The notes below the pieces were generated by a model. It saw only the letters and a list, made by a program, of their open reading frames with translations, was not told where the DNA came from and ran no database searches. Source: Eledone cirrhosa (taxonomy: Eukaryota). Taken from it: 64,000 nucleotides of DNA. Below, piece after piece: positions 20,940 to 61,464 of this stretch (position 1 is the stretch's first letter; each line of letters begins with the position of its first letter). A program made the translations under genes and the position numbers. The stretch covers positions 36,332,001 through 36,396,000 of the forward strand of contig OZ024740.1 of assembly GCA_964016885.1 (NCBI GenBank), read 5' to 3'.

Positions 20940-21475
20940 AACACATGAGAAGAAAGAATACTGCGTGGTTGCACATGGGTTACATATGATAAAAATAGTC
21001 CTTCGTCAGTGATTTTCCAACCTTCATTGGTATTTCATCGCTTTAAAAATCATATACCTCCGGTTGGTGCGAGCAATAGCTAAGTAAAGCTATTGGGACA
21101 AGTAAATCGCGTAAAGCGGGCGAGACAAGTAAACAAACAAGAAGGATTGATAGCAACGCAAAGATAGGAAAAAACAAGCAGCATGGTTATCCGGTCAGTT
21201 TAAGCTGGGTGGATTTCATGAGCGAGCGGGATACAGACCATCCGACGTGAGTGAGATGTGAGCCAAACGGGAGGAAGTGAGAAGGGGAGAAACAGAGAGT
21301 GAGTGAGTGGAAGTGGCCAGTCGAGAGAAAGTGTAACTGACAGAGGGGGCGAAAGAAGGTGAGAGTAACAGAGAGAGCGGGGAATCAGTAAGAGAGAAAC
21401 AGACAAACGCAGCCGAGGTAAATATATATAAAAAACATGAGAAGAAAGAATAGTGCGTGGTTGCACATGGGTTAC
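20940..21475 (-). repeat. Dispersed family C (purine/pyrimidine-skewed body, rearranged HHR); other copies at 23750-24395(+), 30165-30790(-), 33205-34040(-) and 60740-60975(-)
   Basis: Shared block cttcatcagtga..tttcatcgcttta..catatacc..ggttggtgcga, with partial tandem (pseudo-LTR-like) duplications and microsatellite flanks. Confidence 0.85.
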
Positions 21476-21559
21476 ACACACACACACACACACACACACA
21501 CACACACACACACACACACACACACATATATATATATATATATATATATATATATATAC

Positions 21560-22110
21560 TATATTATATTTTGAGAATAAACTCTCAGTCGTTTACAATA
21601 ATTAAGCTCCAGGAAAAGGGGCTTTTCCGAGCAGTTAAATACATTAAAATATATGATAAACACGAAACGTGTTTACATTACAACAGACAAAGTTAGCTAT
21701 TAATGAAATAAACTAATTAAAGTGAATACAAATTGTCTGTCTCGATATAAGTCAATAAAGACAAGCTTATATTGGCAACGGCCATGATTCCTGGACAGAT
21801 TTAAATTTCAAAATGCAAACCCGTTCCGTAGACGAATTTGAACCTCGAAACCTAAATCCGTTTCGCAACGGTGGAATGTGAATTGAAAAATAAAGAGAAT
21901 CGAAATGGAATAGAAATAAAAAGTGAAATACCCAAATCTTCTGTGCTTATCAACAGGAATCCAGTAAAATTAGTATATCTCACATCAAAAAATTTTGCAG
22001 GTCTGACTACACGTGTGTCGCCAGGCCAAACTAGCCGTCTCGCATTCACGGTGCTAGAAATAACAGCCGCTAATGCGGGATTCAAGATCAGCTCTACAGA
22101 AAAGGAGCAA
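21560..22110. repeat. Unclassified dispersed repeat; diverged copy at about 60985-61440
   Basis: Shared blocks atttaaatttcaaaat, gttccgtaga and gctagaaataacagccg. Confidence 0.7.
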
Positions 22111-22242
22111 TATACTATATTATATATATATATATATATATATATATATATATATATATATATATATATATATATATATATATATATATATATATATATA
22201 TATATATATATATATATATATATATATATATATATATATATT

Positions 22243-22520
22243 AGCGAGAATCGTATTTCGGCTTAAGAATTAACGAAAAACAACTTCCGAGATGTGTGGC
22301 AAGCGCTCAATGATTCAGATGAACCAGAGCTACAACATACGTTAAAGGCCAAACACACTGAGACGATGGTTAAACAATCATCCGCACCGCCAAAAAAACG
22401 ACCAAGTAATTCGGGTCAAACAAATAAAAATATATGTGATTGAAAATTTACCCGGGCCCCTGGATGGTTGGTAAAATCCAGCATTTGGGTTTCTGCGACT
22501 CCTAAATCAAGTACTTCCAT
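22243..22520. repeat. Unclassified dispersed repeat; longer copy at about 63530-63955
   Basis: Shared blocks acacactgagacgatg, caaataaaaatatat and ccagcatttgggtttctg. Confidence 0.75.
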
Positions 22521-58225: not shown

Positions 58226-59011
58226 GCTTGTATGCTTGAAACAGAATGTGCTCCGCTAAAGCAATAAATGTTGGTGGATGAAAATATTTCCTTCGTGTTA
58301 TGGGCAGATTTTTGATTTTGATAGTCCCGCGACAGATCTAGCAAGCCGGCGATAGATAATTAAAAAAATTGCTAACAAAACAAACATAAGACCTTGTTCT
58401 GGAGAAACCTCTGGGCTGATGGGCCATACATACCTGCTGTGGGATGACGATAAAAATAGCCTCGGAAGCTTTTGATATTTAAGATTTCACCATCACTTTC
58501 CTGGTGATTTGTATACAACAAAAGGTTGAGGCCTGTATTTTTGTGCTTCTATCTTCTTTCTATGATTTATGGTGGCTGGTTTTGGAAGTGCTTAATAAGG
58601 AAGTTTACCTAGTGTTGTTATGTGTGTGCGTTATTTAAGTTCCTCTTATTAAATGTGATATGATGTGGCTGTTAGAGTTGTTAACTCTACAAATTACTAT
58701 GTTATGATGTGGCACAGATTTTTAGATTTGGGGAATGCTCTACTGATTTTTTATATTTTTTAGAATATGGTTTGTGGTATCTATGTTGCTAGATGTGTTG
58801 TTGTTGAATTCTGTGAACTGTTGGAGAAAGTGATTCTAACAAACTGGTTTTAGGTTTGTGAGTTGCGATTAAGAGGGGTAGTTAGTCGCAGAAGTGTTCT
58901 TTGTAATGTTATGGTAACTAGGGGCGTGAAATAAAACATGAATTCCAGAAAGAAATTAGTACAATTAGCTTTATGATTTATGTTGATGTTTGTATTGGCT
59001 GATATATATAT

Positions 59012-60134
59012 ACTAGACCTGAAAAATGCGCAAGCTCAAAAGAGCCACAGAATATTATAATAAACCTTAAAAAGTGTGGGACTAGAGTTGTTGCTCAAAA
59101 ATATTGTAATCATTATCTATCGTACACTCTGTGGCATCGTTTTATAAAAAAGAGACTCATAACGAACTCAAGACGACACTATAATTATTTAAGTGAATTT
59201 ATAATATAGAATTCGGTTTAAGTGCATTTCGTATTAATCATTACTAAATATCTAATATAAGATATTGAACATTAGCTTAAATAATTATCGTGTCGTTTTG
59301 AGTTCGTTATGAGTCTCTTTTTTTATAAAAGGATGCCACAGAGTGTACGATAGATAATGATTACAATATTTTTGAGCAACAACTCTAGTCCCACACTTTT
59401 GAAGGTTTATTATAACATTCTGTGGCTCTTTTGAGCTTGCGCATTTTTCAGGTCTAGTTTAATTTTTTTTAAGGCAACGTTTGCAATAACTCTAGTTAAA
59501 CATGATATATATTAATAATAAATTATCGTTGTAATGTAATTAGATTATATAATTTTTATTTTATAAATGATCTTATAAATATTATTGTAAGATGTATAAA
59601 AATATTTTCAGATTTTTAATATAAACAACTACAAAAAACAATCAATATTAAATAAATATATTTTACATAATAATTGTTATAGTTGAATTAATAAAAATTA
59701 AATATTACATACAAATAGTCTAACATAATAATAAAAAAATAATCTAACATAATAATAATAAAATAATCTAACATAAAACGAACAATAATATGGATAAATA
59801 TACAAGTAAATATGATACAACCAATATTATAAGCATGTTATAACGAACTGAAAAAAAAAATAGTTAATATAAATTAAAAAAATCATATATAAATTAACAA
59901 TATAACTTACCAAAACGAGAAATATATTTTGACGATAAAACGGAGGGAGATTCGATAAAACAGGAGGAAGATTCGAAAGTGAAACGATAAATAAACGTGT
60001 AAACAAAGTGGCGGATGCTTTTGAGCAACAATTACTCTCATTGGTTGATTAGCCAATAAGGCGATGAAATTAGCCAATAAGACGATACATTACAAAATAT
60101 GTTTGGCAGGGATCACCACGGCCAGTGAACCCCT
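59012..60134. mobile_element. Fold-back element family F, apparently complete copy
   Basis: Palindrome 59012-59458, AT-rich body and an imperfect terminal hairpin gggatcac/gtgaaccc at 60109-60132. The right boundary is inferred. Confidence 0.7.
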
Positions 60135-60543
60135 TGAATTTTTTTATTCACAAGCTACGCATATATGTCAGACATGCAGACTTAAAACATTCTGTTGTTA
60201 GTCACTGCGTGTCTAACAGATATGATAAAGTTCTACCTGTATAAATACGTGTGTAGCCGAGACTGCATCAACGTGTATTAATATATGCACCCCTTCCCCC
60301 CTCTCTCTCTCTCTCTCTCTCTCTCTCTCTGTATATATATATATATATATATATATATATATATATCGTGATATGAAATCGTGTGTTGAAACAAATATTG
60401 TTATAATATTGCCATAAATAATAATAGGCCACACTCACTGTTTGGTTTGGGTTGGTTTTCCCTTCTGTGCCTTTTATATCTCCATAGTTAATTTATCTGG
60501 CCATCAATGTTTATCATTGATTGACCAACGGGAAGAAACATAA

Positions 60544-60595
60544 TAGTACCACTGATGATATCACAGATTTGTGACGAAAGAACTTTAATATACTA
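60544..60595 (+). ncRNA. Decayed hammerhead motif
   Basis: CTGATGA ta-tcac..gtga-c GAAA gaac TT, with stem I poorly paired. Lies in a repeat with an inverted copy (60510-60530 and 60637-60660) and a homolog at 62570-62720. Confidence 0.45.
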
Positions 60596-61464
60596 TATAT
60601 CTATATCTATATCTATATTTATATCTGTATTTTTAGCCGTTGGTCAATCAATGATAAACACACAGACACACACACACACACACACACACACACACACACA
60701 CACACACACACACACACACAATATATATATATATATATATGAAAAAGTGAGTCCTTCATCAGTGACCCTCCAACTGTCCTGGGCATTTCATCGCTTTAAG
60801 GGCCATATGCCTCAGGTTGGTGCGAACAACGGCTAAAAGAAGTCGTTGGCACACGTAAACAAAGGGGACGCCAGGGTAACAACAAAAAAGTTTTAGCAAC
60901 GGAAAGTGAGTAGAAATAGACAAGTCCCAGATCTCTATGAATATAAACTCTGTGAAATCGTGAACAAGAGAGAAAAGTTAATATAAATTAATATATATGA
61001 TAAACACTAATACAATCATATAAGTGTTTGTATTGCAAATGACCAAGTTAGCTAGATTGAAAAATACTAATTAGATTAATACAATTTGCCTGTCTCGATT
61101 TAAAATAATAAATCAATAAAAACAAACCCATATTGGCAATAGCCGTGGTACCTGGACAAATTTAAATTTCAAAATCCAAACCTGTTCCGTAGATAAGTTT
61201 AAACTTCAAAACCCAAATAAGTTTCGATAATTGAAAAAGTGAAAAATTCCATTTTCTGTTCTCATCAGCAGGCACCCAGAAAAATTGATATGTTTCACCT
61301 CGAAATATTTAGGAGGACTGATAGACGCACATGGTTTCTCAGCTTCTAGCTACCCCATACTCGTGCTGCTAGAAATAACAGCCGTTTTTTGGGGGGACTA
61401 AAATTTAGCTCAACAAAAGGAGCCGTTAATACTATTAACTTGTATATATATATATATATATTTC

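Follow-up and report, generated by a model that had tools for sequence, protein, structure and literature searches.

We describe a hammerhead-like RNA that occurs repeatedly in a window of 64,000 nucleotides (nt) from Eledone cirrhosa (assembly GCA_964016885.1, contig OZ024740.1, positions 36,332,001 to 36,396,000, forward strand) and throughout that assembly (3.0 Gb in 1,796 contigs). Positions of features are given in window numbering. The RNA is probably an active hammerhead ribozyme of about 100 to 115 nt, present once per unit of non-autonomous retrozymes that would depend on Penelope-like elements (PLEs), and by covariation it consists of six helices. Its conserved blocks stand in the order S-G-C: stem IIIa, the UH of the cleavage triplet and stem Ia (block S), then GAAA and stem IIIb (block G), then stem Ib and CUGAYGA (block C). 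With all helices included, covariation gives the order P1a-P2-P3a-P4a-IIIa-UH-Ia-linker-P3b-Y-GAAA-IIIb-kink-P4b-Ib-CUGAYGA-N-P1b. Judged by the same covariation, helix II in these RNAs is a four-way junction formed with an upstream strand, not a duplex of the strands that follow A9 and precede G12.

The six copies that a first-pass annotation of the window had reported are all found at their positions and on their strands, and each reads IIIa-UH-Ia ... GAAA-IIIb ... Ib-CUGAYGA. The letters of the window also bear out the pairings of stems I and III, the AUA triplet, the extension of stem III by ccaacc/ggttgg and, in the 33.2-kb copy, the one mismatch of stem I. CUGANGA, GAAA, the U16.1-A15.1 pair and an NUH triplet are present in 6/6 of these copies, a core that the search patterns impose in part. 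The sample comprises 213 sites with paired stems I and III, drawn from the window and 210 loci. Clusters of at least three members hold 196 of them and define 17 subfamilies, or families (F0, F5 and so on); singletons and pairs (17 of the 213 sites) were excluded from the family tests. Strands of stems I and III pair when matched within a family and do not pair when swapped between families (permutation on 10 less redundant families, p < 1e-5 for stem I and 2e-4 for stem III). The covariation that the annotation had seen in these stems is thereby borne out: all six pairs of stem I and all four of stem III change on both sides, and the permutation tests agree. On 23 natural copies a model of 32 pairs is 86.9% paired, compared with 70.4% after shuffling (reached in 0/500) and 33-44% when the model is slid, and two-sided changes are seen in 24 of the 32 pairs, spread over every helix. 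The alignment of these copies misaligns F4, F5 and F6, which were kept in, so the counts for the pair model are lowered.

Next, we asked what takes the place of stem II. The annotation had called this stem weak, and this part of its claim stands, as there are 0 to 2 direct pairs in 17/17 subfamilies. The family permutation test gives p = 0.21 for direct stem II, and a direct helix of 5 base pairs (bp) is 40.4% paired in the 23 natural copies against 43.3% after shuffling; on both counts we reject a direct duplex between the strand that follows A9 and the one that precedes G12. A bridging strand that lies about 45 nt upstream, on the other hand, pairs with both stem II strands and yields a four-way junction of P1, P2 and P3, in which P1a pairs with the bases after 10.1, the P2 hairpin follows and P3a pairs with the bases before 11.1. 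The strands differ from family to family (for P3, UCGC/GCGA, CACGAU/AUCGUG, GCGCG/UGCGC, AAUGCA/UGCAUU and GAUGC/GCAUC; for P1, GUCC/GGAC, UACC/GGUG, UUCCCG/CGGGAA and UCUCCC/GGGAGA). With registers fixed by P2 and P4 and matched strands compared with swapped ones, the permutation test gives p < 5e-6 for P3 in the 17 families and 2.5e-5 in the 10 less redundant ones; the corresponding values for P1 are 3.5e-4 and 1.1e-3. A score of 4 is reached by P3 in 15/17 families and by P1 in 13/17. F15 and F17 are without P2 and would form a three-way junction.

The bridging strand also bears on the base pair next to the core. No 10.1-11.1 pair is possible in five of the 17 subfamilies (F5, F6, F10, F14 and F16), and in 5/5 of these the bridging strand offers a G opposite C11.1 together with the complement of 10.1. 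Four predictions had been written down before the upstream DNA was fetched. That P3a would read UUGC given P3b = GCAA came true in 3/4 listed loci and in a fifth copy, and that G would stand at 10.1 in the subfamily with C11.1 came true in 5/5 ribozymes. In the fold that we propose, P3 would stack beneath the G12.A9 pair and serve as helix II, with a modest preference over P1. The same active ribozyme could be stacked differently, with P1 continuing helix II and P2-P3-P4 forming a second stack beside the core; to this we assign a minor, tentative share of the probability of the active ribozyme. It agrees with the direct 10.1-11.1 pair that is possible in 12/17 subfamilies, where P1b adjoins immediately, and with the 0 to 2 linker bases between P3a and P4a, which suggest stacking of P3 on P4. 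It fits less well with the five subfamilies in which C11.1 pairs only with the upstream G, restoring the usual G-C pair under G12.A9, and with the additional base that natural hammerheads accommodate between A9 and 10.1, which makes the A9-10.1 link the loose one.

Cleavage as a dimer, for which the annotation had proposed a test, is not the best explanation of the weak stem II, since the helix is rebuilt by the upstream strand. A domain-swapped dimer between tandem units, or action in trans, as in the hammerheads of PLEs and amphibian retrozymes, nevertheless deserves mention: the elements are found in tandems, and metazoan PLE hammerheads are often dimeric (PMC4209133; PMC7229834). We consider it improbable. 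Known dimers mend a short helix III, whereas here helix III has 4 bp plus an extension and is complete in cis; the stem II strands are unpaired both in cis and in trans, so a bridging strand is still required, and it is present in each unit; and adjacent ribozymes lie 500-800 nt apart. The stretch 24255-24345, which the annotation had proposed for transcription in vitro, lacks P1a and the greater part of P2, which by itself may keep it from cleaving.

Stem III runs on, via an internal loop, into the sixth helix, P4, of which 5/6 pairs change on both sides in the 23 natural copies. The loop carries a kink-turn motif (a 3-nt bulge of variable sequence, then G.A and A.G, between stems) in 10 of the 17 subfamily consensuses and a plain bulge in five. 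Six of these ten subfamilies were first found with a pattern that imposes the GA pairs; with a pattern that does not, GA stands on the bulged strand in 98 of the first 100 rows, counted by eye. In a standard kink-turn a 3-nt bulge is followed by G.A and A.G, the 3b.3n pair is variable, and Kt-23 has 2n = U (Huang and Lilley 2016, PMC5061560). The present RNA is like this in its bulge, its G.A and A.G pairs, its variable 3b.3n (A.G, C.U or U.U) and the 2n = U form found in two families; here the kink-turn is a predicted fold. A G at 3n or a C at 3b permits kink-turn folding with ions alone (PMC4382518). We infer that, through the bend, P3, P4 and stem I come together at their far ends. Perhaps, at rather long odds, the host protein 15.5K/Snu13 could switch cleavage through the kink-turn. 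In no paper did we find a kink-turn assigned to a natural retroelement hammerhead. By eye, the III-to-I linker could pair with the 3' flank in F0 alone, and this helix was dropped.

We wanted to know how common the RNA is. The family pattern has 10,362 exact matches in the genome, and 15,013 are obtained with a looser one that takes in the cleavage block, compared with 0 for either reversed control. Patterns that force another stem III give 68, 586 and 141 matches (controls 2, 0 and 1). A loose pattern for all families counts double and has a high control (56,947 vs 9,314), so we took no count from it; among its matches, two abundant repeats proved not to be of the S-G-C type. With a pattern that leaves the stems unpaired, stems I and III pair in 35/65 genome matches compared with 1/80 metagenome matches (80 listed of at least 120). 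The sole metagenome locus with both stems, among the 80 listed, shows AT-rich pairing and has no bridging strand, and for that reason the metagenome set served as a negative control. Standard models are blind to the motif, as the annotation had expected: Rfam shows no hammerhead among the window matches listed (150 of 247), and of its 3 matches within 33200-34030 none is a hammerhead. Most of the 15,013 matches belong to a single clade of young subfamilies, as would be the case if a chance resemblance to a hammerhead in one repeat family had been spread by copying. We give this explanation hardly any credence, for both sides of every helix change in divergent families, reversed-pattern controls yield 0 to 2 matches, and the covariation tests already contradict it.

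The host units are non-coding and pyrimidine-rich. From tandems and pairwise matches their length is about 500-800 nt (679 and 804 nt for the window tandems, 515 nt for one F0 tandem and 721-806 nt for an array of nine units). Among 51 F0 copies, 24 have their end 70 nt beyond the cut site and 14 between +112 and +120, with AT runs at these ends; the junction is intact in all 51, whose ends lie 61-120 nt or farther beyond it and never at the junction itself. The annotation had proposed that the ribozyme defines transcript ends; the ends of inserted copies, at least, are not set by the cut site, as they lie 70-120 nt downstream with the ribozyme intact. The 5' ends are variable, and inverted segments occur at 11 places among 60 loci. 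The features of a PLE-mobilised non-autonomous element (a fixed 3' end with a short tail, a variable or inverted 5' end and a microsatellite target) are thus present, and the proposal of a retrozyme- or PLE-like host repeat holds: there are tandem non-coding units with one hammerhead each, and the ends and targets are PLE-like. Since inserted copies extend across the cut site, in some cases over more than one unit, they would have been templated by an uncut precursor or a re-ligated circle. The motif AACCACRCAGC lies 83-127 nt past the cut in 11/17 families. This tail motif can pair with a downstream GCTGTGACC (33870 and 33824 on the minus strand; 61670 and 61713 on the plus strand), and the AT-rich loop between them holds the longer 3' ends; motif and partner are a candidate recognition site of the mobilising enzyme. 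In a partial repeat upstream of copy 2 (23753-23875, plus strand) P3a is fused directly to the tail, and the entire catalytic region is missing.

Do these RNAs cleave? Position 17 is A, C or U depending on the subfamily, and A17, C17 and U17 subfamilies all exist. G17 has 70 matches, scattered over subfamilies, compared with 15,013 for A, C or U, and no subfamily is founded by G. Hammerheads follow the NUH rule and are not known to cleave at G17. F0 and four relatives are 64-68% identical in the body and 85-93% in the ribozyme, with 11/11 core bases and 4/4 kink bases retained (the core belonged to the search pattern), and the catalytic core is constant among families in which all stems have changed. 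The alternative is a fold that has been retained and yet does not cut, or cuts too slowly to matter, and that serves the mobilising reverse transcriptase as a structure for recognition or packaging, with copies made from uncut tandem transcripts. It would explain the intact junction and the distant ends of the 51 F0 copies, and it fits the lack of a normal helix II and the poor cleavage in vitro of minimal PLE hammerheads (PMC4209133); furthermore, the U.U at 3b.3n in several families recalls box C/D kink-turns that need protein (PMC5061560). We nevertheless think it unlikely, given the shifts of position 17 that avoid G, the persistence of the core across families with all stems changed, and the fact that type I retrozymes of the same tandem layout do cleave and circularise (PMC7229834).

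For the active ribozyme we propose the following course of events. The kink-turn or bulge would bend back the extension of stem III, so that stem I, P3 and P4 meet at their far ends, in place of the usual contact between loop I and loop II. Tandem transcripts would then cleave themselves after the NUH triplet into monomers, whose cut ends would be held by P1, P3, P4 and stem III until ligated by RtcB (by analogy) or by self-ligation; with four helices holding these ends, circularisation could be favoured. The reverse transcriptase of a PLE would prime on the circle or the precursor at AU-rich sites 70-120 nt beyond the junction, and insertion into (AT)n would leave 5'-truncated, inverted and multi-unit copies. 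We also lean, with little more belief than doubt, towards a broader claim: that this is an active four-block hammerhead outside the published scheme of six permutations, in which the strand after A9 is diverted, helix II (including the equivalent of G10.1 in five subfamilies) comes from an upstream strand through a four-way junction, and a kink-turn closes the fold. It would then be the first ribozyme with a non-circular permutation from an animal genome and would drive a hidden class of retrozymes that escape type I descriptors.

Several points weigh against an active, PLE-dependent ribozyme with this junction. Cleavage, circles and the partner element are predictions. An intact cut site near the 3' end of inserted copies is what a slow or inactive ribozyme predicts as well. 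The copies were collected with patterns that contain the core, and the permutation values are optimistic, because the families share descent and their independence is thereby overstated. With a loose search window P1 is weak (p = 0.047), and the register-constrained test was used in its place; P1 is weak or not resolved in F11, F13 and F6, and P3 likewise in F15 and F17. The P3a predictions for two lone old copies failed. So did the prediction that stem IIIa would be GAUA (0/4), a G.U wobble having been retained; a sister subfamily with the complete change to GAUA/UAUC is present among the matches of the looser pattern. Nested minimum-energy folds of five window copies do not recover the model and are mostly unremarkable (z from -0.55 to -2.22), pseudoknots not being representable in them. 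The 20 PLE protein matches near the 213 ribozyme sites are scattered in strand and distance and reveal no consistent partner. In one coding PLE family (30 loci) the ribozyme occurs only as separate insertions in 2 loci, and in a second (30 loci) a motif of type I order occurs in 10 and the S-G-C ribozyme in none. An end or ribozyme shared with an autonomous PLE was not found in these 30 + 30 loci of two coding families, other families, including Naiad proteins, not having been searched; Naiad PLEs are reported to be without hammerheads (10.1101/2021.04.23.441226). As a separate observation, stem III in related subfamilies runs through a series GGUA/UACC, GGUA/UAUC, GAUA/UAUC with a wobble intermediate (G000:C1:14922164, 20537185, 20537682 and 24382669).

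As reference for the parts of the ribozyme we use copy 5, a member of F0 that extends from P1a to P1b over 33899-34000 on the minus strand, with a predicted cut after A33954. Read 5' to 3', it begins with the bridging strand, that is, P1a (GUCC, 33997-34000, partner P1b), the covarying P2 hairpin (33975-33996), which is the third arm of the junction and is the part missing from F15 and F17, and P3a (UCGC, 33970-33973), whose partner is the 11.x strand of stem II. P4a (CCAACC, 33963-33968) is the 5' strand of the stem III extension, and the non-bulged strand of the kink-turn motif (3n, G2n, A1n, as defined in PMC5061560) follows at 33960-33962. Block S (33947-33959) holds stem IIIa (33959-33956), U16.1, H17 (A33954) and stem Ia; block G (33930-33942) holds P3b (GCGA), U11.1, GAAA (G12 at 33937) and stem IIIb. 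The bulged strand (3-nt bulge, G1b, A2b, 3b) and P4b take up 33918-33929, and block C (33899-33917) consists of stem Ib, CUGAUGA (33910-33904), position 10.1 and P1b (GGAC). The 3' tail with the conserved AACCACRCAGC lies at 33834-33898; inserted copies terminate on either side of it, in (AT)n.

The core of each copy had been placed correctly by the annotation. Its 5' limits were too short, however, since the structured RNA begins about 40 nt farther upstream and measures about 102 nt in total (e.g. 33899-34000). Copy 1 (20998-21099, minus strand) lies in an element whose tail is duplicated (about 20927-21476), copy 2 (24233-24334, plus strand, F2) in one at about 23753-24407, and copy 3 (30178-30279, minus strand, F7) in one at about 30148-30793. 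Copy 4 (33220-33321, minus strand, F0), with one mismatch in stem I, is the second unit of the 679-nt tandem with copy 5, and copy 6 (60751-60852, minus strand, F7), with one mismatch in P1, belongs to a 5'-truncated element at about 60721-60977. By analogy, the predicted cleavage sites of the six copies are after 21053, 24278, 30233, 33275, 33954 and 60806. Two further ribozymes of a divergent family with identical order had been overlooked. They belong to F5 and form an 804-nt tandem on the plus strand: the first (61493-61608), with a GUC triplet, would be cut after 61552 and the second (62297-62412) after 62356. The F5 ribozymes have no 10.1-11.1 pair and no kink-turn.

Elsewhere in the window there are remains of PLEs and simpler hammerhead-like motifs. 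A broken Penelope-like element with a reverse transcriptase domain (PF00078) occupies 51178-53457 (plus strand), with a 3' flank to about 54150 that contains a degenerate minimal type I hammerhead-like motif at about 53865-53900, seen by eye. Minimal type I hammerhead-like motifs are also found at 5563-5599 (minus strand) and 14674-14715 (plus strand); the latter sits downstream of a PLE-like open reading frame (ORF) at 12169-13883, and a motif of the same order lies downstream in 10/30 related loci. GIY-YIG endonuclease fragments of a further PLE family are seen at 17137-17583 (minus strand) and 48323-48957 (plus strand); for this family we detected no hammerhead motif up to 1.5 kb downstream in 30 loci. 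Another repeat family of the genome (loci L249-L253, e.g. G000:C1:3577547) has CUGAUGA, a long loop II and GAAAC, and its 5' flank can pair with the loop over about 14 bases; it is probably a type I hammerhead with a helical contact between I and II. Finally, 55091-55948 is an exact duplication with a spacing of 558 nt, identical at 300/300 bases in the block shown.

The interest of these families is that they break a block, CUGANGA with its stem II strand, that was assumed to be unbreakable in 2023, and that they bring the S-G-C order at high copy number into an animal genome. Dozens of natural variants provide ready-made compensatory mutants. If they cleave, it becomes testable how much of helix II the catalytic core requires, how a non-circular permutation arises within retroelements, and how many animal retrozyme families were missed by searches that demand type I topology.

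In the literature searched, which extended neither to paywalled papers and repeat databases nor to supplements on bioRxiv or the bulk of that of Eckert et al., we found no description of such an RNA. The words hammerhead and retrozyme do not occur in the accessible text of a 2026 octopus repeat annotation (PMC13282606), and a 2026 paper cites further hammerhead variants with extra helices (PMC13725137). The statement in the annotation that non-circular permutations had been reported is correct: the S-G-C order was named type SGC, and such RNAs cleave in vitro at 0.007-0.19 per minute (Eckert et al. 2023, PMC10085705). According to that paper, they come from environmental sequence, and none was seen in genomes that belong to known organisms, one weak GCS candidate excepted; CUGANGA and the adjacent paired strands were assumed to be inseparable, and the SGC descriptor demands CGAAA, CUGAUGA(U)G and at least two further direct pairs in stem II.

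The window copies show the S-G-C order from 5' to 3', and they share with type SGC (HRIMA-1 and variants) the full core, the pseudoknotted stems I and III and a short linker between stem Ia and the 11.x strand (3-4 nt in our RNAs and typically 3 in theirs). On the other hand, the published rule for stem II and core is passed by 0/213 sites: type SGC has a direct stem II, whereas here stem II is predicted to be a junction with an upstream strand. Type SGC, as known from its text and legends, also has a helix 'I', in which the III-to-I linker pairs with sequence 3' of stem II, while the linker here consists of the kink and P4b and pairs upstream. Type SGC is environmental, and here we have an RNA of about 100-115 nt in an animal genome with more than 15,000 copies.

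The host repeats resemble non-LTR (non-long terminal repeat) retrozymes (Cervera and de la Pena 2020, PMC7229834; Li et al. 2026, 10.64898/2026.07.22.740005) in their non-coding tandem units with one hammerhead each, their dispersed monomers and arrays, their low GC and their likely PLE dependence. In type I retrozymes the transcripts are cleaved into monomers, which RtcB chiefly makes circular (PMC7229834), and these retrozymes have been proposed to derive from PLEs (10.64898/2026.07.22.740005). Their units measure 150-450 bp (PMC7229834) or 51-972 bp (10.64898/2026.07.22.740005), compared with about 500-800 nt here, which exceeds the first range and falls within the second. They are defined by type I hammerheads, whereas the order here, as read from the DNA, is S-G-C and out of reach of type I descriptors. 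For PLEs themselves, partial tandems, inverted truncated copies, short tails and insertion into microsatellites have been described (Craig et al. 2021, 10.1101/2021.04.23.441226). Penelope-like elements with their pLTR minimal hammerheads (Cervera and de la Pena 2014, PMC4209133; 10.1101/2021.04.23.441226) share with our units the partial tandems, the inverted 5'-truncated segments, the tail at one end and the insertion into microsatellites; unlike them, our units have no ORF, and the coding PLEs that we examined in this genome bear minimal type I motifs or none. In summary, by its predicted fold and its repeat structure the element is hammerhead-like and non-LTR-retrozyme-like, yet it misses one defining trait of each, namely the direct stem II of type SGC and the type I order of the retrozymes.

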